Source: Thraustochytrium aureum
Lineage: Eukaryota
Assembly: GCA_012862495.1 (NCBI GenBank)
Contig: BLSG01000321.1
Location: forward strand, 1 to 52,479
Direction of reading: 5' to 3'
Length of the DNA: 52,479 nt
Shown here: positions 768 to 15,193 of the stretch, piece by piece
How positions within the stretch are numbered: the first letter of the stretch is position 1
How the letters are laid out: every line of letters starts with the position of its first letter
Notes under the pieces: generated by a model
What the model was told of the DNA's origin: nothing
The model's database searches: none
Seen by the model: only the letters and a program-made list of their open reading frames with translations
Made by a program: the position numbers and the translations under genes

Positions 768-1217
768 CCCGCCCTTGTAGGGCGGGCTCGGCGGGCAGTT
801 GACGCCGGAGCAGACCGGGTCGCAGCTTTAAAAAACAAGCAACAACGAAACGCGCGCCGCGACAGTAGTAGTAGCACATGCCTCCCACGCGCGCGCGGGT
901 GGGGGGGGCGGCGCGGCGTGAAAGAAAGAAACTCGAGCAACGCAACCAATTGACGCACTCACTCAGTTGAAATCATCAAAGCTTGGGGAATAGGAACCCA
1001 ACGAAAATGAATCAGCAAGTCAACACCGCACTTGCGAAGCCAGCAACCCACTTCCGCGTCGTTGACGGCCTTCAGGGGCGCTGGAGCGAGTGCGGGAGCC
1101 TCTGCATGCGCGAGGGTAGGAAACAGCAACATTCTCGGCGCCCGCAGCGGGTCACCCATCGTTCTTTCTTCCTGTAGAATAAGTAGCAGCTGCCCTAGCC
1201 CGGGTTCGGGGACGGCC

Positions 1218-4057
1218 CTAAGGGCGGCCGGACCCGCCGCTGTTCTTCGCAAACTTGCGCGACTTGTCGGGCTTGGCGGCAAACATCTGCGCCTTGCGCT
1301 TGACCGAGCTAAGCATTGTCTCAATATCCTCCCCGTCGCTGCTCGGACCACCGGAAGCGCCTNNNNNNNNNNNNNNNNNNNNNNNNNNNNNNNNNNNNNN
1401 NNNNNNNNNNNNNNNNNNNNNNNNNNNNNNNNNNNNNNNNNNNNNNNNNNNNNNNNNNNNNNNNNNNNNNNNNNNNNNNNNNNNNNNNNNNNNNNNNNNN
1501 NNNNNNNNNNNNNNNNNNNNNNNNNNNNNNNNNNNNNNNNNNNNNNNNNNNNNNNNNNNNNNNNNNNNNNNNNNNNNNNNNNNNNNNNNNNNNNNNNNNN
1601 NNNNNNNNNNNNNNNNNNNNNNNNNNNNNNNNNNNNNNNNNNNNNNNNNNNNNNNNNNNNNNNNCCCCGTGTCGTCTTGTACTGCGCGCTTGTGCGATCC
1701 ACACTGTAGTCAGGGTCTTCGTACAGAGGCGCAAAGCGCTGGTCGGTGGTGTCCACCTTGAAGGTGTCGGATTTGGCGAGCTCGAGTGCGTCGCGGATCT
1801 TCTGCTTCTTCTTGGCTCGGCCTTTGACCTTGCCGCCCTTCTCAAGGAGGATCTTCTCGCCTGCGACCAGAGTCTTGAAGTCAAAGCCCTCGAGCCCACC
1901 GCCTTTCTTGCGGTTCTTCTCGTCCAAGAGCAGCAACTCGAGCTCGGCGGCCTCCTTTTCGCGCCGCGCCTCAGCTGCCACCTTCGGGTCAACCTTTGCG
2001 CCGTCGCCTTGCTCGTCCCCGTGCGACCCAGACCCGTTCTGCCGCCGAGCGCGCTCCTTGCGCTTCTGATCTTTGCGCGACTCGCCCTCCGGGTTGGTGA
2101 AAAACGGGTCGTTGAACGGGTCGGCTCCCTTCTTGCCCTTCTTGTCGGCCCCAGCTTCGCTCCTCGGCGCCTCCTCCTCTGCTGCCGCCACCTCGTCCCT
2201 CGCGCGGCGCTTCGACTTTTTGGGCTTTGCAGCATCCTCGGCAGTCTGGCCACTTGCTCTGTTCTGCAGGCGCTCTTCTAGCTCGGGGTCGTATGTCATC
2301 TGAAACACAGCGTCCTCGTCGTCCTCTCCCGCCTCGGAGGCCTCGCCTCGGAGGCCGCCCGCAGCGCCGCCTTCCCCAAGCAGCGCGGCTCGCAGGGTCT
2401 TGCGGTACTCTGCTGACTTGCGCTTCCTCCTCTCCTCGTCCTCCGATTCCGAGTCGGACTCGGACTCGACATCCGAGGCGATGAAGGCCTCCAGGTCGCG
2501 CTCGCCAATCATGCGCTTACCCTTGACTTGGTCGCCGTTCTTCCACTGGTTCAGCTTTTGCCGGTTGTGGTCGTCCTCGTCCCAGGTGAGATCCACCTTG
2601 GTGCTCTGCAGCGCCTGGGTGACAAATTCTGGCGCCTCGTAGTCCTCGGAGAACCCGGTTGCCTCGTCGCGGAGGGGGCGATCAAGTTCTACGTCATCCG
2701 GTACGAACCGGAGGTCAAACACATTTGACGAGCGTTCAAACTCGACGCCGTCGCACTCGTCGTACACCTTTGAGGCGGCCGTCACGGAGTCGAACTCTGC
2801 AATTGCAAAGTAGTACTTGAGTTTGTCCAGTTCGTAGCGGCGCAGCGCTTCGTCATTGTAGCCGTCTCCCTCGCCGGCCTCCTGGTTGAAAACGATCTCC
2901 TCATCCGAAGACTCGTCTTCCTCCTCGTCGTCTGCTGCGGCGTCACTGCGTCCCTTGCTGCTCATCTCCTCTGGGCGACCTATGCGCGGCCCGAAGCGCT
3001 CTTCTTCTTGCATGCGCTGTTCGCCAAAGATAGACTGGTACACCTTGACGCTCTTGAGCGCGCCGCCCGTCACGAACGAGTTCATCACAGCGAAGATGTC
3101 GTTCGCAGTCAGGCGGGCCCAGTCCAGGTTCTGGACCGCGATGCGCCGAGTTGCTTCTCCAAGAGGCACTTGGTACTCCTCCTCCTCCTCTTCCTCCTCT
3201 GCGTCTTCGGCAATTTCGGCGTTTGGCTTGGCGGCCGCCGCGCCCGCTTTCTTCGTTTTGGGCGCCTTCGTCGATTTCGGGGCGGGCTTTCGCGTTTCCG
3301 CCTCTGACTCGGAGCTCTCCGACTCGGCATCAGACTCGTCGGACGAGTCGCGCATTTTGATCTCGCCGCGGGCCAACTTGTTTAGGTACTCGAGGCGGTC
3401 CTCCTTGGAGTCGCCTTTGCCGGCTGGTTTCGTCGCTTTTGCCTCGGTGACTTTTCCTTTCGCAGAGGCTCCCCGGGGGGCTTTATCGTTGTCCTCGTCG
3501 CTCTGGTCCTCGTCCCCGCTCTGCACATCGTAGAGCCGCTTTAGGTCGTGGCCCTGAGCGCGCTCCTTCTTGGACAGCTTGCGCCCGTACTTGTCGACCT
3601 TGACTTTCGACTCGGTGAAGGCCTCGTCAGTAAACATGCTCTGGAACCTCTTGTCCACCTTGACCTTGGTCTTATCCTNNNNNNNNNNNNNNNNNNNNNN
3701 NNNNNNNNNNNNNNNNNNNNNNNNNNNNNNNNNNNNNNNNNNNNNNNNNNNNNNNNNNNNNNNNNNNNNNNNNNNNNNNNNNNNNNNNNNNNNNNNNNNN
3801 NNNNNNNNNNNNNNNNNNNNNNNNNNNNNNNNNNNNNNNNNNNNNNNNNNNNNNNNNNNNNNNNNNNNNNNNNNNNNNNNNNNNNNNNNNNNNNNNNNNN
3901 NNNNNNNNNNNNNNNNNNNNNNNNNGCTTGCGCGCAAACTTGGGGTCGAACGCCACATCCTTGAACCGCGCGTCTCGCATATCGCCTCCGAGTCGCCCGC
4001 CTCAAGCGGCCGCTTGCCGGGCTTGCTCGAGCCGCGAGGGGGCCCGTCGCGCGCCAT
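1218..4057 (-). CDS. ESF1: Pre-rRNA processing protein ESF1 homolog (spans two N-gaps; probable 1-nt indel near 3985)
   Basis: N-terminal DARF..DPKF motif (3926-3980); KVDKRF, KVDKYGR, TRRIAVQNLDW, LRRYELDKLKYYFAIAEFDS, DLRFVPDD, VDLTWDE; NUC153-like VDTTDQRFAPLYEDPDYSVD; C-terminal MLSSVKRKAQ ending at a TAG at 1218-1220. Confidence 0.92.
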
Positions 4058-4071
4058 CGCCGCGCCCTCTC

Positions 4072-4147
4072 CCAGCAGGCCGTGCGTGAGCAAGAGGGAC
4101 TCGAGCGCGCCAGCAGGCCGTGCGCGAGCAAGAGAGACTACCGCGCG
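4072..4147. repeat. Two imperfect tandem copies of a 38-bp unit just upstream of the ESF1 start
   Basis: ccagcaggccgtgcgtgagcaagagggactcgagcgcg followed by ccagcaggccgtgcgcgagcaagagagactaccgcgcg. Confidence 0.8.
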
Positions 4148-4346
4148 TCAGCTGCTGCTCCACGCTGCAGTGCAGTCTGGCGCCGCGGTCTGCGCGCTCT
4201 GCGAGTCCGAGCTCCAATTCGCACAACTCGCAACCAACCAACCAACCAACTCGAACGAACACAGCGAACAAAAGGAAATGGCCAGTGAGCTGCAGAACCA
4301 AATTCGCTTTGTTCGTGGCACGTGAAGCAGACTGTGACAGCTTAGC

Positions 4347-4385
4347 ACGAGCAGTGATAGAAGAAGAACGAGCAGTGATAGAAGA
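4347..4385. repeat. 18-bp direct repeat (acgagcagtgatagaaga x2, period 21) next to the transposase stop codon
   Basis: Exact copies at 4347-4364 and 4368-4385. Confidence 0.85.
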
Positions 4386-4396
4386 CAAAGATCGCG

Positions 4397-7300
4397 CTAA
4401 GGCTTGCTTTTCGATGTTATCGGGCGGCTTTTCACGGTTTTGTTTGTGTGCCACTGGTCCCAACAGGACACTTGCTGATTGGTCGAGAAGCGCAAATTCT
4501 TGTGCAGAACAACGTTGCAAAACCCGCAAGCGAGGCTTGCTTTCTCACCACACACGACGCATAGTCGACCAATCGACACCTTTTGCAGCACGTGCGGGTT
4601 GCTGGAAAGTCGCAGCCGCTTCACAGGCTCGGTGTTGGCAATCGCAATCACGTTTCGCTTGCCGTTTCGGATTCGCAGCTCATTGTGCTCCTCATTGGAA
4701 AGCGCTGGCAATTTCACGTTGAGGTTGAGGGTGACATCGTCAACGTTCTGTCGGTCGTCAGCATCTTGCACAGCCTTTCCTCGTGCAGATCCCTTTAGCT
4801 GCGAAGCTCTGTACAGGAGTTGAAAGCTCGCGTTCTGGACAAAGTCACTCAGGCTAGTGTTGCGGTTGCAACGATCTCGAAACCTCTTCAAAGTTGTCCA
4901 AGGCCGACCCTTCTGGGACTCTTTGTAAATCCGCCAGAGAACACAGCTGGCAATCATGCCATCCACCAGTTTATTCAACGTGACTTTCGTTTCCCAGTCC
5001 GTGTTTAAGGCCCGAGTCTGAAGCCGCTGGGCGTAGTCATCGATGCCGTCGACGCCCTGTTTCCCGGCGCTGTAATAGTACTGCGCCATGGAACGCAGCA
5101 CGCGCAATGGCATGAGAACCCCGAGTCGTAGGCGGCGATTGTGCAGGCCCTTCCACAGAGGGAAGCGGGACAAAATGACCTCAGCCTGATCGGGGGAAAA
5201 CGCGTTGGGGATGTTGGGCCTTCCTACCGATGTCAGCGCGCTCCATGCCCACTGAATGAGCGTCTCCCCGACGGGCGCAAGGGCCGAAACCCATGCCTCG
5301 ATCACGGCGGCTGGAAACTTGATAACGACGATGTAGTAGATGGACACTCTGTCCGCGACGCAATAAAGCCCGTGGTCGCTTCTGAAAACACAAGCTTGCT
5401 GAAGGAGCTGGCCACGATGCTCACGTGGAACGAGCGCAAACCACTTCGCATCCCCGGCGGTGCATGTCACGAATCGCTTGTTGTTGCGACCAAGACGCGT
5501 CGGGCGGTCCTTCATCCTCTTCGAGACCTTCGTCTCGATCTCAAGCGGTGCGAGAATCTGCTCCCCGGATGGCAAGTCTAGAGCTACGATATTGTCGGCG
5601 CTAACGCCGAGGTGGGTGTGTGTTTTCGACTGGACGAGGCCGATCTCGAAAACAGCCTTGACTGCCTCCATTTTTCGCAGCTGGGCTACAACAGCCCCTT
5701 CGCTGCGCGACCCAGTAATCATAGCTCGGTTTGCAACGCTTCCGAGCGATTTCTTCACGTGGAACCAGCTAAAGAAGAGCTTCGTGGCTTGTTGCTCGAG
5801 AGTCAGCGGCATCGCATCCCCACGCGAAGGGTCCTCGTACAGAACTTTCCTAACTTCTGGGTCTCGGGCAGCAATCTCCTGTGCTGTTGTACCAGTGATC
5901 ATGAATTGCCGGAACATGAACCAATCAGCGCAACGCTGTCCAGCAGTCAGAGGTTCAACAACTTTTCGTAGCTCATCCTCAACTGCCTCACGGGTTAACG
6001 GCTCAGGATACCCATGTGCAAGCACGCTCTGTGCAATTTGGCTCGAAGCGCTAGACTCTTGTGATCGGCATGGGGCGCTGAGAACATCTGCTGAGTCGGA
6101 AACCTCAGCCTGATGGACTGGGGCGTCGGAGCCTTCATTTCTCTCATCGTTGCGGAGGGCTGCCTCCACGTCGTCGCCAAAAACGACTCCACCTCTCCTT
6201 GGATCGTCGTAGTCATCTTCGTCGTCATCTTCGTCGACGTCAAAGCCGTCGCAGCTGCTGCAATCGTCGTTGTCCACATCGCTTGACGCAGACTCCGCCT
6301 GACCCAGAGGATAAAACAGCCAACGACTGGCAATAGAGGCTTTGACGCGAGGGAACTCCTCTGCGACGTAGTGCGTTTGGAACCTTTCCATGAGTTCTGG
6401 ATCGAGCATTGCCACGAAGCGATGGACTCTTGTGCAGTCTGCATTTCCGAACTCCCGAACTGCGTACGCAAAAGCGGTTACCTGGCGTCCCGCCTTCCTC
6501 GTTAGACTCCTCTTCGCGCTAAAGATTTGCGAGCCAAGTCGTGGGCCGTCCTCGACAACAAATTTCCGGGAAACCAATGTCCGTGGTGCCGCGTCCTTGG
6601 ACTTGCTGGCCTTGTCGGCCTTGTCGACTGCTGACCTTGAAGCGAACGGGTTGCCCTGCTGGCGCTCAAAGTCATTCACGACGATGAGATCAAAGCCCAT
6701 CTCAGCACAAAGACAATAAAGGTCGGGGCTTGGGTAGCCTCGATCAAGGCAAATCTCAATGCCTGAGCATTCTCCTGAAACAGCGCGCTTGAGCTCCCCC
6801 AGAATTTGCTCGAGCGACCTGATTTGCGTGTAGTTGCCCGAGTACATGACACTAAAGAGGGGGATTCGGAACGCTGCATCAGCGCTTGCGTCAGAGCCTG
6901 CGCCGTTCTTGTGCCGATTTCGAGGTCTGTATGTATTGTTCGGGTTTGATGCAGAGACGGTCCCACAGTTCCGGTCATCGATGGTGACCCTCGCATTTTT
7001 ATCCACGCAGATCTTGAGAGGCACTGCCGCTAAGTGTTGATCCAGGGTCCCAAACCGAGACGCGTTGTCGGCGATGTCGTCATGAGACTCTGCTGTCGCG
7101 CCTGCATGTGGCTCCATGCCAGAGAGGGCGCGTTGAATTTCGTTGAATCGCTCAACGCACAGCAAGGTGTCATCCACACTGCTCTTGAACTTGACCCGCG
7201 CCAGAGCTTCGAAGAACTCCATGCTGTACTTTTTCGAAGTCGAATTGTTGAGAATGGAGAGCAGGTACGCAAAGAAAGCGATGAACTCTGACTCTGAGAC

Positions 7301-8023
7301 GGTTCGTACGTCAGGGTATGTAAGCCGAATGCGCTGGTTTGTCCACTTCCGCAAAACGTTGAGAACATCTCCGAGAACGAGCTTCACCATGTCGATCTCG
7401 CGAGGATTATCGGTGTCAAAGCCTTCCCGAAAGAGTTGACTTTTGATTGCAGCGCACATGCGGTTTACGTGTCGCTCGCCTTGATCATCAATTCGCGAGA
7501 GTGCAGCCGCCTCTGACCTGGAAACCACCACGAAGCAGTCAGGATCCTTTAGTCTAGTCCATGCCTGATGAAAAGGCTTGTCTTGTGTTGATCGGCCACT
7601 TGGGCGAGGCCTCGACGCAGTTGGCTGAGCTGATGAGGCGCCCATCTCTGAACTAATCCGACTCTGGTCTGGACTAGAACGGTTCGCAGATTGTTGAGTT
7701 GATTTCTTGCTGCGCATCCCACGCAAATGGCAATGCTTGCTCCTTGCATCGCGATGACCCACTATCCCACATGCTGAGCAAGTAGGTTGCTCGACTTGGA
7801 CATCACCGGTACCAACAACTCTGCTAGGTTCCCGCTGCTCCGTTCTCCCAGCTATTTCTCCATGGGCGCCATCTTGGATCTGTGCAACAGGCACGGCATC
7901 TGGCGTTGGATCATTCCGCGGGGATCCAGAGCAAACTGTAACACCGTCAAGTCTGGGGCCTGTTTCTGTGCCTTCTCCAGCCCCTAGGAGCGCCGGCTGC
8001 TCGCTCGCCGAGTCGCCGTCCAT
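4397..8023 (-). CDS. piggyBac-like DDD transposase with N-terminal Zn knuckle, internal YqaJ/lambda-exonuclease-like domain and C-terminal Cys-rich domain (~1208 aa from the first ATG)
   Basis: piggyBac motifs: KWTN...EFIAFF, ERFNEI, D1 TIDD (6977-6979), D2 LDRGY (6743-6745), D3 KQGVDGIDD (5048-5050), and CRD CVVC..CGFCNVVLH..CWDQWH. YqaJ motifs: QRCADWF..RQFMITGT, AMITGSRSE, GLVQSKTHTHLGVSADNIV, LEIETK, QLLQQ (~5320-5950). Zn knuckle CSACGIVGHRDARSKHC (~7730-7780). The ORF-track start at 8260 is non-ATG; the first ATG is at 8023. Confidence 0.88.
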   Translation of the reverse strand: MDGDSASEQPALLGAGEGTETGPRLDGVTVCSGSPRNDPTPDAVPVAQIQDGAHGEIAGRTEQREPSRVVGTGDVQVEQPTCSACGIVGHRDARSKHCHLRGMRSKKSTQQSANRSSPDQSRISSEMGASSAQPTASRPRPSGRSTQDKPFHQAWTRLKDPDCFVVVSRSEAAALSRIDDQGERHVNRMCAAIKSQLFREGFDTDNPREIDMVKLVLGDVLNVLRKWTNQRIRLTYPDVRTVSESEFIAFFAYLLSILNNSTSKKYSMEFFEALARVKFKSSVDDTLLCVERFNEIQRALSGMEPHAGATAESHDDIADNASRFGTLDQHLAAVPLKICVDKNARVTIDDRNCGTVSASNPNNTYRPRNRHKNGAGSDASADAAFRIPLFSVMYSGNYTQIRSLEQILGELKRAVSGECSGIEICLDRGYPSPDLYCLCAEMGFDLIVVNDFERQQGNPFASRSAVDKADKASKSKDAAPRTLVSRKFVVEDGPRLGSQIFSAKRSLTRKAGRQVTAFAYAVREFGNADCTRVHRFVAMLDPELMERFQTHYVAEEFPRVKASIASRWLFYPLGQAESASSDVDNDDCSSCDGFDVDEDDDEDDYDDPRRGGVVFGDDVEAALRNDERNEGSDAPVHQAEVSDSADVLSAPCRSQESSASSQIAQSVLAHGYPEPLTREAVEDELRKVVEPLTAGQRCADWFMFRQFMITGTTAQEIAARDPEVRKVLYEDPSRGDAMPLTLEQQATKLFFSWFHVKKSLGSVANRAMITGSRSEGAVVAQLRKMEAVKAVFEIGLVQSKTHTHLGVSADNIVALDLPSGEQILAPLEIETKVSKRMKDRPTRLGRNNKRFVTCTAGDAKWFALVPREHRGQLLQQACVFRSDHGLYCVADRVSIYYIVVIKFPAAVIEAWVSALAPVGETLIQWAWSALTSVGRPNIPNAFSPDQAEVILSRFPLWKGLHNRRLRLGVLMPLRVLRSMAQYYYSAGKQGVDGIDDYAQRLQTRALNTDWETKVTLNKLVDGMIASCVLWRIYKESQKGRPWTTLKRFRDRCNRNTSLSDFVQNASFQLLYRASQLKGSARGKAVQDADDRQNVDDVTLNLNVKLPALSNEEHNELRIRNGKRNVIAIANTEPVKRLRLSSNPHVLQKVSIGRLCVVCGEKASLACGFCNVVLHKNLRFSTNQQVSCWDQWHTNKTVKSRPITSKSKP

Positions 8024-8201
8024 CACAAGGCGGTGAGATTGACTGGCCACGAGAACGTTCTGTCTCTCCCCGTGCTCACTGTCGCAGGCCGCACCAGGTT
8101 GCACTGGAGCTCGTTGGGTATCTATCTGGCTCGCATCTGTGCGCCTGCTCTTCGCTGCAGCGCCGTTTGGTAGCGCTCCAGGAGAGATCAATGGCTGCCA
8201 C

Positions 8202-8227
8202 GGATTTAGAGCACGTGCTCTAAATCC
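8202..8227. repeat. Perfect 26-bp palindrome
   Basis: ggatttagagcac|gtgctctaaatcc equals its own reverse complement. Confidence 0.95.
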
Positions 8228-8295
8228 AACTTTTGAAGGACTTAAGGGTCGGTCATACAAAGTACCGTTGAAATAAGTCCTTCAAAATTAGGATT
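8223..8295. repeat. Inverted repeat (14-bp perfect core, 22 bp with 2 mismatches, 29-bp spacer)
   Basis: ttttgaaggactta (8231-8244) pairs with taagtccttcaaaa (8274-8287). It extends to aatccaac... / ...ttaggatt. Confidence 0.9.
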
Positions 8296-8349
8296 AGTGC
8301 TCGCCTACCTTAACGAGCCTCAGCTCAGCCGTTTTGGATCTTTGCGCAA

Positions 8350-10947
8350 CTAGTCTTGCGTCGAAGATTTCCGCTTTGCTGTCACTGCATCCTTTCGAAT
8401 ACCAGCGACGTGCTTGGCGCACTCTGCCGCCAGGATAGAGGTGTTGCAGTCCTGCGCTTCCCTGGACGATGGGGTAGGGTGGGAGCCGAGGTCGACATCA
8501 ACAATGAGGCCACAGTTGTCACGAACGGCCATCTCGCTGAGTCGGAGGCAGTCTACAACCCGAACTACTTCTTTCCGAGCTGCGTCTAGCTCTGGGGCGT
8601 CCTGGAGGCCGGCAATGAGCCCTTCGAGCAGAAGGTAGGTTGCTTTTTCTTTCTTGAGTCTTGCCCGGCGCAGGCCTCTTTCTTTGGCCTCGTCGATGGC
8701 AGCGGAGCTCAGCAAGCTCCCTACGCGAGCTTGCTCTTGTTGTGCTTGTTCGAGGTCAGCCTTAAGCTTGGCAATCACCGACTCCTGCGTTTCCCATGCT
8801 TCTTCCAACGTAGCGCGTTTCTTCATCCACGTGTCTGCAGAAATGTAATCACTTTTCGCGAGGTACTCGTCGATTCTCTCTCGCATTGACGCCGCCCTCT
8901 GCTCTGCCTCCTCGCACAAGGAGTTCAGGTTCTGACGGTCCATGGTGCTGTCGTCAAATATCGTTCGAAGCGGTCCGAGGCTAGGAAGACGCTGGGAAAC
9001 CCTCTCGAGCGTAGACGTGTCGTCCATGAAGAATCTCTTGCACGCCTCGTCGGAAAGGAGATTTTCCAATGAAGCCACGCCGCTCAGGTCCTGCATTTGT
9101 TGCACATGCTTTTCTGCGCAAGATTCCTTTGACCTTCGCCGTAGTTGGTCCGCGTCGTGGACAGCTGGGTGCGCTAGGAGTATGCCGCGGTTGGCTGGAC
9201 GAATTCCTGTGAGCCGAGCCCCTTCCGCGCAATTTGCCCGATTGAAAACTTTTCGCAATGCGTTTGCGGCGAGCAAGACCTTAACTTGCCGGTTGACTTT
9301 CAGGTTCTTGTTGTCAATGAGCCACTCCCGTTCGAGTTTGGCCATGCAAGATTTGAGCTTCCCAAACAGCACAACAACGGGGCTCTGCATCTTCGATGTG
9401 GCGTTTGGGAGCCATCCAACAAGCACGATTCCGACCTCACGCAGATTGTCAAGTAAATCCAAAGTCAGGCGACTCTCGTGCCAGTCCGTCATCCAAAGGA
9501 CTCGTTTTCCATCCTCAGGTGCAACGTCGGGAAACATGGCCTTGATTGCCGCCACCATCAGGTCTTTGATATTGGCGCTCGTGATTCCGCCCTTCGGAAA
9601 GAGTCCAAGAATGACCTCATTGAGAAGTCGGTTGTTGAAGGGTAGGTCCTTCGGTGCTGCTGCTGCGCGGAGCTGATCCCTAGTTGTGTTTGTGACTTGA
9701 CCCGGAGCTTCCACCACCCAAACGGGCAGTGTGGCCTCTCCGTTGAGGTTGTGCCCTGCGACGAGGGTGATGTGGTGCTGGCAGTCACCTTCAGGCATTG
9801 CAAGTCGTCGTCGCTTTGAGCCTTTGTCGCTCAACTCGAGCCTTTCGGTGGTGGTAACAACCCTCGTTCCTGCCTTTGACGAGCTCCTTCGTTGGCCCCC
9901 GCTGATAGACGTCTCGTCAGTTATAATTACTCGCCCAGGGTCAAGCCACACGAATTCAGACTCTGCCGATTCTTCAACTGTCGGTTGGCGAGCGAACTTG
10001 TACTTGAATGCGACATCTTTCAGTCGATCGAACCACCACTCGATGTTGTCGGAGTTGAACCATCGGAGAGTGCGACAGTCCATCCCCCGAGTGAGACTTG
10101 CGACAACGCGGGGATCCTTTCGTGCCATCCGAGCTAGCCACCTTTCGAACCAGCCCATGGTCGGCCCCAATGGCCCAAAAGCGCTGGGCGACATGCGGGC
10201 GGCAAGCTCCATGACGAGTCCCGGGGTCGCTGGGATTGCGTGACTGTCGAAGTAAAGGACGGCTTTCAGAAGCTCTTCCTCTGCGATTTCCGACAAAGCC
10301 TGTGGCCTTCCAGCAGTGTTGCTCGGGCTTGTCTTGCCACTGTTCCAGCGGAGCAGAGTGTTGAACGAGACCTTGACGGACAGTTCCGTCTCGAAGAAGG
10401 CAGCCGCCTCTCTCGCACTCGAGAAGCAGTGCTTGGCAGCATTCGTCGCTTCTTCGAGCTCCTTGACGAGAGCGCACTCTTTCTCAACCAAACGGGCCAA
10501 CTTGGCTTCAATACTGGGTCTTGTGTGGGTGTCTGCGTCGCCAGGGAGCCCCTGCGCCTCCACTTGCTCTTTGTGCTTGCGCAGTTTGAAGCGAAGACCT
10601 TTTTGCTTGGCCTTGACGTTTGAAACACTTTTGGAAGCCACAGATCTGGCCTGCTTCAACCGCTCACTTTGCCCGTACCAGGCCGCCACAAACTCGCGCG
10701 TGCAGCGCGAGAGACCCTTGCCCCCGCCTGTGCGCTCCTGCGCAAGTACAAAGCCTTTGAGAAGCTCCTGAATCTGCACAAGACGGACAACCTCTTGCCC
10801 GTCGTCGTTTTTCGCAACGACTTTGGCTCGCCCGGCGCTCGAAACCTCCTGAAGTCTGAAGGTAAGGGTGCCTTCCCAGAGGACTGCTGTCCCGTGCAGC
10901 ACGTCTGCCGCCCACTCAAGCCTCTTTTGCAGGCCCTCGCCGTCCAT
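8350..10947 (-). CDS. pogo/Fot1-like (Tc1/mariner superfamily, DDE_1-type) transposase with CENP-B-type HTH; third catalytic Asp replaced by Val
   Basis: HTH region AGRPQALSEIAEEEL...GPTMGWFERW; D1 IITDET (9916-9918); HITLVAGHNLNGEATLP; D2 WMTDWHESR (9484-9486); LPNATSKMQSPVVVLFG where canonical proteins read P..T..LQPLD. 35 residues separate D2 from this Val. Predicted coiled coils at both ends. Confidence 0.85.
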   Translation of the reverse strand: MDGEGLQKRLEWAADVLHGTAVLWEGTLTFRLQEVSSAGRAKVVAKNDDGQEVVRLVQIQELLKGFVLAQERTGGGKGLSRCTREFVAAWYGQSERLKQARSVASKSVSNVKAKQKGLRFKLRKHKEQVEAQGLPGDADTHTRPSIEAKLARLVEKECALVKELEEATNAAKHCFSSAREAAAFFETELSVKVSFNTLLRWNSGKTSPSNTAGRPQALSEIAEEELLKAVLYFDSHAIPATPGLVMELAARMSPSAFGPLGPTMGWFERWLARMARKDPRVVASLTRGMDCRTLRWFNSDNIEWWFDRLKDVAFKYKFARQPTVEESAESEFVWLDPGRVIITDETSISGGQRRSSSKAGTRVVTTTERLELSDKGSKRRRLAMPEGDCQHHITLVAGHNLNGEATLPVWVVEAPGQVTNTTRDQLRAAAAPKDLPFNNRLLNEVILGLFPKGGITSANIKDLMVAAIKAMFPDVAPEDGKRVLWMTDWHESRLTLDLLDNLREVGIVLVGWLPNATSKMQSPVVVLFGKLKSCMAKLEREWLIDNKNLKVNRQVKVLLAANALRKVFNRANCAEGARLTGIRPANRGILLAHPAVHDADQLRRRSKESCAEKHVQQMQDLSGVASLENLLSDEACKRFFMDDTSTLERVSQRLPSLGPLRTIFDDSTMDRQNLNSLCEEAEQRAASMRERIDEYLAKSDYISADTWMKKRATLEEAWETQESVIAKLKADLEQAQQEQARVGSLLSSAAIDEAKERGLRRARLKKEKATYLLLEGLIAGLQDAPELDAARKEVVRVVDCLRLSEMAVRDNCGLIVDVDLGSHPTPSSREAQDCNTSILAAECAKHVAGIRKDAVTAKRKSSTQD

Positions 10948-11037
10948 CTCGCTGTGTAGTCTCGCTGCAGCCTCCGCGTGTCGCTTCGGTGTCTGAATTC
11001 AAAAATACACAAGCCAACCCAGGCCAAGGTGAGCCTC

Positions 11038-11722
11038 TCAACTCACATTTATAATCGATGTTGACGGGTACCCTGTGACGATAAAGATGAGGATCTTTGG
11101 GAAATTGGCCCTCCCGATGTAGCCCAGCGCGGTCACGGGAGTACCGGTAAGCTTCGAGGTCTGGTTTCTGCGCACAAGATTGTTGAACTCGTCCGACTCG
11201 ATCAAAAACCTTGGAAGGAGTATGTAGTCGCAAGACGTGATGATCGCTTGGTTGAGCGTTGAGACCGACGGTCCTCTAGAGGTCGACCAGAACATAGTCA
11301 AACCTCCACACGTCGCATGCATCGTCGATGAGCTTGCGGAAGGCGTTCAGGTAAACGGGGGCGTATGTCTGCGTGGCTCGCACCAGCGACATCTGTCCCT
11401 CAAAGCTCTCCAGGTTTGGGCTGGCGCTTGGTAGTCCGCTCGCGCCAGGCTCTGCGCATGGGTTTGCAGCATCTCCTGGCCCCCTGGCTTGATCAAGTAG
11501 CCAGCTCTGAGTAGCGAGGGAGTACTCGGGTTCCCGTTCTCCTCTAGCTCTAGAGCTTGTTGCCTGGGCCAGCAAGTACTCGAGTGCAGCGTACTCACAT
11601 GGGCCTACTTCGATCCGCAAGCGATCATCAACAAGGTTGTCTTGGACGTGTCGAGCCAGCATTGCAAGGCAGCCGTCATCCGTCAAATGTTGTTTCATCG
11701 GTGAACACCTTTGCTTTGCCAC
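11038..11722 (-). pseudogene. Degenerate ParA/Soj-like (AAA_31-type) ATPase fragment
   Basis: SPNLESFEGQMSL...AFRKLIDDACDVWRFDYVLVDL then GPSVSTLNQAIITSCDYILLP matches the ParA Walker-B region (YDYILVDLGPSLG.LN..AL...D). It is split by a 4-bp insertion creating a stop at 11276-11278. No Walker A motif is visible. Confidence 0.7.
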
Positions 11723-11873
11723 AGGCCTCCTGCCCCATGGGCCTCTCTAGAGCTAGAGCCTGGCCGGCAATCACAAACAGCCAATTTTTGAATGTTTTCA
11801 AAAGAATAAAGCCCACTCGAGCAGTATTCGCCCACGTGAACCGCATGGAGTTGATGACGCCAGTGGGGCTTAA

Positions 11874-13501
11874 TCACGATGATTCGCTGCCAGAGTCCGC
11901 GCTTGATGAGCGCGGCTGCAGGGACGAAAAGCTACGGATGAAAAAGCGCTGGTCCAGTTCAACGGGAACCTCCAGAGCCGGGCTTGCACAGGCTGGCAAG
12001 GCCTCCCAGGGCGCGCAAACTTGGGCGACGGGCAGTAATGGCCCATGTTGCACATCCTCCGCATCTGGCCCTGGAAAAGAGGACAGAGCCAGCTTGGCAA
12101 GGCCCGGGGGGATGTCGAGGATCGACGGCCACGAGCACGACCGCGTCGCGGGGGGAAAGAGGGAGCAAGGCCCTAATCGGGTGCGCTTGCCGGTCTTGAA
12201 CACTGGCTCGGTCCAGAATCCGACCATCAGCGTCAAGCGCTGCGGGCTTCCACGCGGTGCGGCGCTGTTCCCCGGAAGGACCCCATGCAGGGCGTTGCCG
12301 GGGAACGTCAGCATCGCGCCGTCGTGGGGCTTGGCCACGACCGCGCGAGAGGCGCCTTCAACCGCATCTGCAGCTTGGTCGAAGACGACGGTGCAGCCGC
12401 CATGCTCTGCGCCGGTAAGGTAAGTCACAGAGCTGACGACTGGGTGAACCACCTTCCCGTGGAGCTCGAGGGTGTTCTCCTCCATGTCAAAGTGAAGTTG
12501 GTGCCCGAGGTTGCGCCCGCTTTTTCGAGAGTGCACCCACCACTCCGCCCCCACGATGTCCTCGCGTCGTGTCTGCGCAAGCATCCAGCGGATCGCCAGC
12601 TCAACGAGGTTGGTTGGGCCGCGCTCCACGTCGTACCAGAACGAGTAATACCCGCGCTCCTTGTAGTCCGTCTCCACCCAGTACTGCGAGCTCGGGGCGA
12701 CGCCTCCCGCAGGGCGCTGAGAATGGGCTCTGGAACGACGTCGGCGCGCAGCGTGACAGGAACGGGCGAAACGCTCAAAAAGGCCTCCTCCGCCGTTGCG
12801 ATCTGCGCGACCTCACTTGAGCGCATCCGTGCGGCGGTTTGCCAGACGGCCGGGGCGACGCGGTGCTTCAACCCAAAACGCTGCAGCAGCGGGATAGCCT
12901 TCTCATAGTTGCCCAGCTGGTGATTGATGAGCGCCATCGTGTAGGATGCCAGCGCCACGCAGTGCGCTTTCGGCCGCTCAACCCAGATTTCGGACCAGAC
13001 CGTGCCTTCCGACTCCTGAACGCAGTCGCCGAGTGCTGCGACAGACTCGTAGAGCTTGACCGCTGCGGCTTGGTCGCCGTGCTCGCGCTCGAGGTTGGCA
13101 AGGTTGAGTTGCGCCATTGCATTGCCTGGCCACAACCGCAGGGCCTTTGCGAACCAGCGCCTGGCAGGCTTGATGCGGTGCGCCTCCAGTTCGAGGCCGC
13201 CGAGGCAGTTGGCGCTGCTGCTGGCCACGATATTCAACGGCGGGCCGTACCCGCCGACGTCCCCTGCACCGTCGTCGGCGCGCGCGCCAAGCAGGCGTTC
13301 GAGCTTGCCAACCAGCCCTTCGTACGCTTTCGCAGCGGCTGCAACCTCCCCGCCGTCCTCCAAAAACTGCGCCTCCTGGAACGTGTCGACCGCCTCGTCC
13401 ACCATCCGCTGGAGCTCTTCGCGCGTTTCCCTCCGTTTCCCGGCCTCTGCGCCGCTGCCAGGCCCGGGCGGGCACCTCTTGCGCTTGAGCCGCGCCACCA
13501 T
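11874..13501 (-). CDS. TPR-repeat plus 2OG-Fe(II) oxygenase-like protein (1-nt frameshift near 12700)
   Basis: TPR-like helices (ARRWFAKALRLWPGNAMAQLNLANL; ALINHQLGNYEKAIPLL). Adding one T gives EAFAPSSQYWVETDY and joins a C-terminal domain with GAEWWVH..HQLHFD (HxD), SSVTYL, GGCTVVF, LHGVLPG and RLTLMVGFW. Confidence 0.75.
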
Positions 13502-13732
13502 CGTAGCCGGCCCTTCCCCGCTAGCTACTTCGCTCCAGCCAGGATTCTCCGCCGATGTCGGCGCAGCAGAGCACTACTTACAAGCAAGGGCCAGGTCGCG
13601 CCAACGAGCACGCCGGCCGGACGGCGCCCCGAGCTGCAGCGCGCCGAACTGGCCGCGACCACGACCGCGTCCGCGCCGCGAGTGTCGCACCAAATGCGTT
13701 CCTCGAGACTCCCTCTCGCGTGTCATCCCGTC

Positions 13733-13785
13733 CGCTCGGCGCCGCTCGGCTCCGCTCGGCTCCGCTCGGCGCCGCTCGGCGCCGC
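13733..13785. repeat. 10-bp tandem repeat (cgctcggcgc / cgctcggctc), about 5 copies
   Basis: ccgctcggcgccgctcggctccgctcggctccgctcggcgccgctcggcgccgct. Confidence 0.8.
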
Positions 13786-15193
13786 TGTCCTGGCGTCCTG
13801 CAGGACGCGCCGCAGCTCCTGCAAGACGTGGCCAGCCAGCCGGATGTCTTGGAGTGAGCGCCCATTCGCTGCGCAGGAGGTCGCGCAGGCGCAGCTCGAG
13901 GACTTGTCGTTCGATGGGCATCTCCGCCTCTCCACTGGACAGAGAGAGCTTGAGCCAGCGCAGCCGTGGTCAGCCAGCCAGCCTGCCTGCCTGCCTGCCG
14001 NNNNNNNNNNNNNNNNNNNNNNNNNNNNNNNNNNNNNNNNNNNNNNNNNNNNNNNNNNNNNNNNNNNNNNNNNNNNNNNNNNNNNNNNNNNNNNNNNNNN
14101 NNNNNNNNNNNNNNNNNNNNNNNNNNNNNNNNNNNNNNNNNNNNNNNNNNNNNNNNNNNNNNNNNNNNNNNNNNNNNNNNNNNNNNNNNNNNNNNNNNNN
14201 NNNNNNNNNNNNNNNNNNNNNNNNNNNNNNNNNNNNNNNNNNNNNNNNNNNNNNNNNNNNNNNNNNNNNNNNNNNNNNNNNNNNNNNNNNNNNNNNNNNN
14301 NNNNNNNNNNNNNNNNNNNNNNNNNNNNNNNNNNNNNNNNNNNNNNNNNNNNNNNNNNNNNNNNNNNNNNNNNNNNNNNNNNNNNNNNNNNNNNNNNNNN
14401 NNNNNNNNNNNNNNNNNNNNNNNNNNNNNNNNNNNNNNNNNNAGTGGTCTGATTTGGTGGTCGGTCTTCTGCTCGAGGTGATTGACGCCGGAAAAAGTGG
14501 GATGTGACACTCCTGGCGTTGATGGCCGAACTCGGAGAAGAGGGCTGGCTGGGCAAGAATGGGCGCGATCGATCGATGGATGGATGGATGGATGGACGGA
14601 CGGTGCTCTATGGAGTTCTTCCAGTTCCGCACGCGAGGCACGAGAGATTTGACCGACCTTCAAGGTGGACTCTTGTTGGTACCGTTGCAACGGCTAGGTT
14701 GGGCGATGAGGCGGACAAGGCCGCGGCGCCAGCGCTGCCACGCGCGCCGAGTCGGTGGGGCAATCGCTGCGTCCACCTACCGCCTGCTTGGGGGAGCTTG
14801 CGCGATTCGTACCGATTCGTACGAGAGTGGCCTGCAAGCTCTGTGGCCTGCTTGGACGAGCGCGATCGCTCGGCCTCCCTCGCGCGAAAAAGAAACAGCC
14901 ATGGGAGGGTCGACAGCATCCAGCCGCCCCTCTCACCATGCGGAGAGGCAAGTGCGCGCCTCCTCTTGCGTTCGGAACGAAATTGCGCAGGGTTGCACGC
15001 TCTGTCATTCGGAATCGGGCGTTCCGACGCACTCGAGAATGCAGGCAACTTGAAGCATGCAATGCCAGGCAGGAGGAAACGCCTGCAGCAGTACCAAGGC
15101 TGATCAAGACGTGGACAAGCAGGTCCCTGCCGAGCGACGCAGTGGACAAGGTCTCGACCCCGACGGGCTCGGGAGGGCACACGACGGGCGAGA

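Follow-up and report, generated by a model that had tools for sequence, protein, structure and literature searches.

A probable end-truncated piggyBac-related transposon of Thraustochytrium aureum with a predicted lambda-type exonuclease domain inside its transposase

The piggyBac transposase is valued for its seamless excision from TTAA sites. In the available text of PMC7351741, the Trichoplusia ni enzyme has a catalytic triad of D268, D346, and D447 and an insertion domain (residues 372–433) that lines the channel holding target or flanking DNA; the spacings that the first-pass annotation of the present DNA had given for this enzyme, 78 residues for D268–D346 and about 100 for D346–D447, agree with that triad. 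The fusions described in the accessible portions of a survey of more than 13,000 piggyBac subfamilies are N- and C-terminal (PMC13461360). An exonuclease inside a DDE core (Dada) and lambda-type exonucleases associated with transposons (KolobokE and ISL2EU) are already known from the accessible parts of the literature. The subject here is an open reading frame (ORF), P0001, in a 52,479-nucleotide stretch of Thraustochytrium aureum DNA (contig BLSG01000321.1 of assembly GCA_012862495.1, forward strand, the whole of which is termed the window). On balance, P0001 appears to belong to an end-truncated copy of a piggyBac-related transposon, in which one protein is predicted both to transpose and to trim DNA ends through a lambda-exonuclease-type domain between the second and third catalytic aspartates (D2 and D3).

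P0001 encodes 1208 amino acids at 4397–8023 with zero internal stops, as the first-pass annotation had claimed; the strand, which it left unstated, is the minus strand, and the plus strand of the same interval is dense with stops. The N-terminal half carries, in order, CSACG (residue 82), KWTN (226), EFIAFF (246), ERF (291), TIDD (347, containing D349), and DRGY (427). The nuclease motifs follow as QRCADWF (696), ITGT (709), HLGVSAD (804), LEIETK (827), and QLLQQ (872), and the C-terminal part holds KQGVDGIDD (988, containing D992) and CVVC/CGFC/LHK/CWDQWH (1155–1192). All of the motifs claimed earlier are therefore found, in the claimed order. The candidate catalytic residues are D349 (D1), D427 (D2), and D992 (D3), and the spacings of 78 and 565 codons were reproduced. 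The reported CCHC knuckle is present, refined to C-x2-C-x4-H-x7-C, but its Pfam match (zf-CCHC_6, E 0.62) is below cut-off. The insert of ~460 residues said to contain a second nuclease does contain a predicted nuclease domain, at approximately residues 686–962, with ~90 residues of the insert being an acidic linker. The motif written as E.(E/K) reads E-I-E in the window and E-x-K in four full-length relatives.

These relatives were found through the nuclease insert, which as query recovered three proteins among 7981 candidates: P0003 (Hondaea fermentalgiana FCC1311_075012, 1040 aa), P0004, and P0005. Metagenome contigs, when scanned, yielded 333 candidate stretches, of which four were confirmed: L001, L002 (the same as P0004), L003 (the P0005 locus), and the partial L004. 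The full-length relatives P0003, L001, L002, and L003 share 28–43% identity with P0001. Because all four keep the parts in identical order, the layout is real and conserved, beyond chance. In L001 the reading frame shifts between D1 and D2. In L002 and L003 the D2–D3 spacing is 475, owing to the absence of the acidic linker. The Hondaea protein, encoded on a 290-kb contig, has Asn at D2 and lacks the zinc knuckle and the Cys-rich tail while keeping the nuclease E-x-K; it looks domesticated and is a candidate gene retaining the nuclease. L004 (1035–3548, from a seawater metagenome) matches the N-terminal half; beyond its first exonuclease motif come a low-complexity stretch, a Cys-rich finger, and the end of the contig. 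Word-indexed homologue searches gave 0 of 7992 candidates for the long region and 0 of 7991 for alignment A2, and both missed the known relatives. The family search found 0 of 44 and 0 of 55 candidate stretches in viral contigs, 0 of 135 in prokaryote genomes, and no match in annotated phages. With these relatives for comparison, the features of the locus are as follows:

4397..8023, minus strand: transposase ORF P0001, 1208 aa, with ATG at 8023 and stop at 4397–4399
7730..7780, minus strand: zinc knuckle, aa 82–98, its spacing common to L001, L003, and L004
6989..7381, minus strand: helical dimerisation/DNA-binding region of the N-terminal half, ~aa 215–345 (KWTN, EFIAFF, ERF); profile A2 against T. 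ni piggyBac 145–225
6977..6979, minus strand: catalytic D1, D349 (TIDD); xDD kept in 5/5 relatives
6743..6745, minus strand: catalytic D2, D427 (DRGY); DRGY in L001–L004, NRGN in Hondaea P0003
6308..6562, minus strand: beta-rich segment, ~aa 488–572, a conserved block with strands in the model (pLDDT ~50, predicted local distance difference test)
5984..6301, minus strand: acidic low-complexity linker, ~aa 575–680
5138..5968, minus strand: lambda-exonuclease/YqaJ-type PD-(D/E)xK domain, ~aa 686–962 (D810, E828), from profile searches and model
5534..5536, minus strand: codon 830, Glu where the aligned relatives carry the catalytic Lys of E-x-K
5048..5050, minus strand: catalytic D3, D992 (KQGVDG), aligning to piggyBac KGGVD/D447
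4448..4561, minus strand: C-terminal cysteine-rich domain, aa 1155–1192, aligning to piggyBat C-terminal region 510–576 (domain independent E-value 5.3e-5)
8202..8295, unstranded: likely 5' end remnant, with a palindrome at 8202–8227 and an inverted pair at 8223–8244 and 8274–8295; similar pairs in L001–L003
4279..4396, unstranded: 3' remnant, with no terminal repeat before the ESF1 upstream region

Profile, family, and model searches support an RNase H-like catalytic core of piggyBac type with a DDD triad. Searched against 177,635 PDB sequences, a four-protein profile matched piggyBat (9c0f, E 6.6e-6) and T. ni piggyBac (6x67, E 2e-5). The alignments fall on the N-terminal helices, the helix at D3, and the Cys-rich tail. 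These two were the only PDB sequences below E 0.3, the other row being a zinc finger at E 0.31; sub-profiles A5 and A6 gave no meaningful match to PDB sequences. Pfam had been expected to show DDE_Tnp_1_7 split around YqaJ. For whole P0001 it gives neither family, and a PDB sequence search with the whole protein yielded no useful match. DDE_Tnp_1_7 does appear on either side of the insert in the relatives, below cut-off in both cases (profile positions 18–230 before the insert in P0005 and 303–349 after it in P0004). P0004 and P0005 both match Pfam DDE_Tnp_1 above cut-off, and the N-terminal piece of L001 matches DDE_Tnp_1_7 above cut-off (E 2.7e-6). It is the relatives, the profiles, and the AlphaFold model that carry the domain assignments.

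The whole-protein model was built from seven alignment rows (mean pLDDT 48.6), both folds of this study being built on 4–7 sequences. Among 48,161 chains, its structural matches rank piggyBac first and piggyBat second (Z-score 11.9), well above the rest. The piggyBac alignment has a Z of 14.3 and a root-mean-square deviation (rmsd) of 5.6 over 280 residues at 15% identity, pairing model residues 37–940 (aa 183–1086) with chain residues 117–527. A single rigid alignment to 6x67 takes in residues on either side of the insert, with pLDDT below 50 around D1 and D3; such an alignment fits a predicted arrangement in which D3 folds back onto the core. The beta-rich segment at aa 488–572 is likely the ordinary insertion domain.

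The nested YqaJ/lambda-type nuclease that had been proposed within this core is likewise supported by profile, family, and model searches. PHROG 434, a RecE-like recombination exonuclease family, is matched by all four nuclease domains searched (window, E 0.0099; L001, 4.3e-5; L002, 1e-4; L003, 2.6e-6). In Pfam the window domain gives Viral_alk_exo at E 0.002 and YqaJ at E 0.13, both below cut-off, and its top Atlas clusters are YqaJ at 0.88, a lead-level score. Residues 628–794 of the whole model match LHK-Exo (Z 6.8, rmsd 4.3, 123 aligned), R354 (5.9), Dna2 (5.5), and lambda exonuclease (4.9), matches that are weak alone. Among the weak Foldseek rows are a baculovirus alkaline exonuclease at probability 0.95, a YqaJ protein of a pandoravirus at 0.94, and lambda exonuclease at 0.77. 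All four full-length relatives, including both complete elements described below, retain the S-A-D and E-x-K motifs and the Gln motif downstream of them, whose catalytic roles we take to be those of the lambda-exonuclease family. When the ratio of nonsynonymous to synonymous substitution rates was compared between L002 and L003 over five regions, the nuclease was lowest at 0.13, followed by the D3 region (0.14), the core (0.24), and the termini (0.31 and 0.61). The nuclease domain is thus under purifying selection between these two elements.

The element family is mobile. L002 (3767 bp) and L003 (3783 bp) both begin CCCGGTCTTGTT, with terminal inverted repeats that start CCC and match at 11/12 and 12/12 positions, respectively. 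ATAT lies directly outside both ends of each, with unrelated flanks beyond, and L001 starts at ATAT plus C, its other end being cut by the contig. Since L002 and L003 have exact ends and exact duplications, the element's own ends were inserted intact and have not eroded. Inverted pairs lie just inside the 5' ends of L001–L003. The available text of PMC10045372 counts a start with CC and a duplication of 4 bp among the traits of piggyBac, and the CC start of the terminal repeats is found in L002 and L003. ATAT is described as a rare site among piggyBac-like elements in the part of PMC5381638 at hand. Because the target in the relatives is not TTAA, the family is filed as piggyBac-related and not as canonical piggyBac.

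Several observations weigh against this interpretation of the locus. Both models are poor (mean pLDDT 48.6 and 39.5), with the D1 region and D3 in segments below 50. Foldseek of the whole model against the PDB and a viral library returned nothing at E<=0.001, and the exonuclease-only model (the one at 39.5) gave no Z above 3.6, LHK-Exo reaching 3.4 there. Pfam YqaJ (PF09588) stays below its gathering score in all four domains, the highest score being 13.6 bits where 22 is required. What is known of the ends and of the ATAT target comes from two complete elements only, and neither an empty donor site nor an excision footprint came to light. Synonymous changes are in excess among the differences between the window and run X2 (expected share 0.24–0.29, P 0.001–0.008), which fits a recently truncated copy and a kept gene equally well. 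Those two sequences differ at 34 letters, of which 32 are listed in the ORF as 16 synonymous and 16 not (one beside an indel).

The window's own copy is likely truncated at its ends and immobile, as judged from its sequence. No terminal repeat was found on either side of it, only the subterminal repeats at 8202–8295. At 8296 the window enters a 53-bp repeat and another long ORF. In a contig of public run X1 that continues past 8295, letters 19–30 on share 8 consecutive letters (9/11) with the L003 terminal repeat, a comparison made by eye on the 30 letters visible. X1 and X7 contigs cease to match the window to the left of position 4279; a further X1 contig stays with the window on into ESF1. 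Three TTAA sites close to the ORF (5005, 8242, and 8310) were considered as element ends and rejected, being unpaired with terminal repeats. The 53-bp stretch (8296–8348) has high contig depth in X1 and differing flanks in X1, X2, X3, and X7. It contains AGCCGTTTTGG, also present inside the L002 5' end and, in shortened form, at the remaining L002 and L003 ends, and is possibly part of another element's end.

Codon 830 specifies Glu in the window and X1 and Lys in X2, X3, and X5, that is, Lys in three of the four public runs covering the site; it is uncovered in X7 and X9. In addition, S774 of the window replaces an Asn that is invariant in the relatives, and runs X1, X2, X3, and X5 carry a 12-nt in-frame insertion in the acidic linker at 6225. 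With Glu in place of Lys830, the nuclease of the window copy is likely dead. The earlier suggestion of a protein that cuts and then resects DNA ends probably does not apply to this copy, given Glu at the catalytic Lys position and the missing terminal repeats.

Single contigs span the ORF unspliced and without a joint, X2 covering 4376–8109 (the whole) and X3 covering 4430–8091 (nearly the whole). The first-pass annotation had named splicing-out of the YqaJ part as evidence that would count against it, and no contig examined skips the nuclease part. X2 and X3, which come from one study, are guessed to be RNA; no run is on record as RNA, and contig depth was not used as copy number. Expression of P0001 is therefore graded as likely only, since the RNA nature of X2 and X3 is a guess and both derive from one study.

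For the family's active members, we tentatively propose that the nuclease trims 5' strands at the donor site, with a gain in copies. By analogy with piggyBac, a dimer would bind the terminal repeats, and the DDD site would excise the element and insert it at the palindrome ATAT. The insertion domain carrying the extra nuclease would face flanking DNA, again as in piggyBac. Lambda-type enzymes trim 5' strands from phosphorylated ends. The nuclease could in this way chew the 5' strands of the broken donor site, its simplest useful target, and block simple re-ligation, after which repair from the sister chromatid or homologue would restore the element and raise its copy number.

A rival role, which we consider fairly unlikely, is that the nuclease acts at the element ends, cutting or trimming the non-transferred (5') strand in place of the piggyBac hairpin step. 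The precedent is Tn7, in which TnsA, a PD-(D/E)xK protein, acts beside TnsB. A domain placed in the insertion domain would adjoin flanking DNA, the constraint on the nuclease is strong, and exact ATAT duplications require only precise 3' ends, all of which suit such a role. However, the family resembles piggyBac in its D1–D2 spacing, its D3 helix, and its 4-bp palindromic target, which fits the hairpin route. The kept WF..R/K...ITGT motif, which in lambda-type exonucleases binds the 5' phosphate end, also suggests action on a free end and not an internal cut.

It is unlikely, to a slightly greater degree, that the window gene is a domesticated derivative kept by the host and not a decaying copy. 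The intact 1208-aa frame and the synonymous excess would be expected of such a gene, and contigs ~99% identical to it occur in four DNA runs, one of them bridging to ESF1, besides those from the probable RNA runs. The Hondaea protein, having lost D2 and the Cys-rich tail, offers an apparent parallel. Against these stand the X1 contig that reaches terminal-repeat-like sequence past 8295 and the divergence of X1 and X7 at 4279, which together imply that copies with other ends exist. The G+C content at third codon positions is 0.60 in P0001 versus 0.70–0.79 in five host ORFs, and the window has derived changes at invariant nuclease positions. An end-truncated copy of a mobile element remains the preferred reading of P0001.

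Quite improbable is the idea that the nuclease domain is a captured passenger or a DNA binder only and contributes no catalysis to transposition. Glu in place of the catalytic Lys is tolerated in the window and X1, and the L004 domain is interrupted by low-complexity and Cys-rich sequence soon after its first motif; the retention of the S-A-D, E-x-K, and Gln motifs across relatives as distant as 28–43% identity, complete elements included, argues the other way. Finally, the gapped window assembly, with its 10 N runs, might have suggested an assembly chimera or a pair of nested elements mistaken for a single ORF, a notion hardly conceivable and refuted by the single X2 and X3 contigs that span the insert and both flanking parts and by the layout shared among the four full-length relatives.

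P0001 lies among ordinary eukaryotic genes, which encode ESF1, a RING-IBR protein, a seven-transmembrane receptor, a WD40 protein, and a sulfate transporter. ESF1 (959–4147, minus strand; Pfam RRM_ESF1 and NUC153) starts a few hundred bases past the transposase stop, so the truncated element occupies the ESF1 upstream region. A 38-nt tandem duplication lies at 4072–4147 and a 21-nt one at 4344–4385, the second 21-nt copy being missing from an X1 contig. Directly upstream of the element is P0002, an 882-aa stop-to-stop ORF (8350–10998, minus strand). By eye it shows the DDE motifs ITDETS and WMTDWHESR, presumably of pogo/Tc1-like type, with the third acidic residue apparently missing; a Pfam search of P0002 gave no relevant match. 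Run X2 has diverged contigs related to the window at 9818–9965 and 11070–11423, in the P0002 region and beyond. The N runs of the window are 235–650 bases each, and none falls within 3926–14000.

An ATAT-targeting relative of piggyBac with a second nuclease at the flanking-DNA surface would show the scaffold rewired for a different processing of ends. It would also provide a one-protein system for the question of why the Kolobok, ISL2EU, and Dada superfamilies independently acquired exonucleases. For transposase engineering, the insertion point is of use because it tolerates ~370–460 extra residues in elements with kept ends. For tests, L002 and L003 are preferable to the window's copy. What the window adds is a truncated copy alongside near-identical Lys-bearing copies, together with two complete ATAT elements suited to direct tests.

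As to novelty, a piggyBac element with a nested exonuclease was not found in the literature searched, with the Repbase piggyBacA and piggyBacX entries outside that comparison; PMC5718144, PMC6431247, and PMC9004415 contributed nothing further. The two Repbase lineages are reportedly divergent algal and protist relatives of piggyBac with ATAT duplications, and piggyBacX is said possibly to carry a lambda exonuclease. The chance that the lineage is already named is only a little short of even. In the subfamily survey, the words exonuclease and YqaJ are absent from the main text and the four searchable supplements, a picture-only file excepted (PMC13461360); a fusion-domain figure in that file may bear on novelty. 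The boldest version of the proposal, which we regard as doubtful, would be a piggyBac-related lineage, hitherto undescribed, that targets ATAT, occurs across unrelated protist genomes, and has a one-chain transposase whose built-in lambda-type exonuclease either defeats seamless excision and so gains copies or makes the protein a fused TnsA-plus-TnsB.

Among described systems, Dada of Laccaria bicolor and Ectocarpus siliculosus resembles the present family in having an exonuclease nested in the DDE core after the second catalytic Asp and proposed to process ends, as far as the available text of PMC3706591 describes it. The Dada enzyme is, however, a DEDDy 3'-5' exonuclease and not a PD-(D/E)xK one, belongs to a different superfamily, and targets small-RNA genes. 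KolobokE, in the accessible account of it, also associates a lambda-type exonuclease with a transposase. Its nuclease lies downstream of the transposase domain, its duplications are TTAA, its termini are RR..YY, and its superfamily is different, whereas the present family has ATAT, CCC..GGG, and a nuclease inside the core. ISL2EU shares a YqaJ exonuclease domain, as the first-pass annotation had stated and as the consulted part of PMC4122938 agrees, but places it in a second ORF beside a PIF/Harbinger-related transposase with a THAP domain. The RecE-like, lambda, and YqaJ exonucleases of phages (PHROG 434, PF09588, PDB 3syy and 3slp) show the same motif order and, tentatively, a similar predicted fold; the present domain differs in lying inside a transposase and below the Pfam cut-off, and in the window copy it lacks the catalytic Lys. 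From piggyBac the family departs in its D2–D3 spacing (475–565 versus 101), its nested exonuclease, its N-terminal zinc knuckle, its use of ATAT and not TTAA in 2/2 complete relatives, and the 15% identity of the structural alignment. With piggyBac (6x67/6x68) and piggyBat (9c0f) it shares the DDD triad, the D1–D2 spacing of 78, the helical DNA-binding region, the D3 helix, and the Cys-rich C-terminal domain, and its relatives have the CC-starting terminal repeats and 4-bp palindromic duplication of those elements, as described in the accessible text of PMC7351741.

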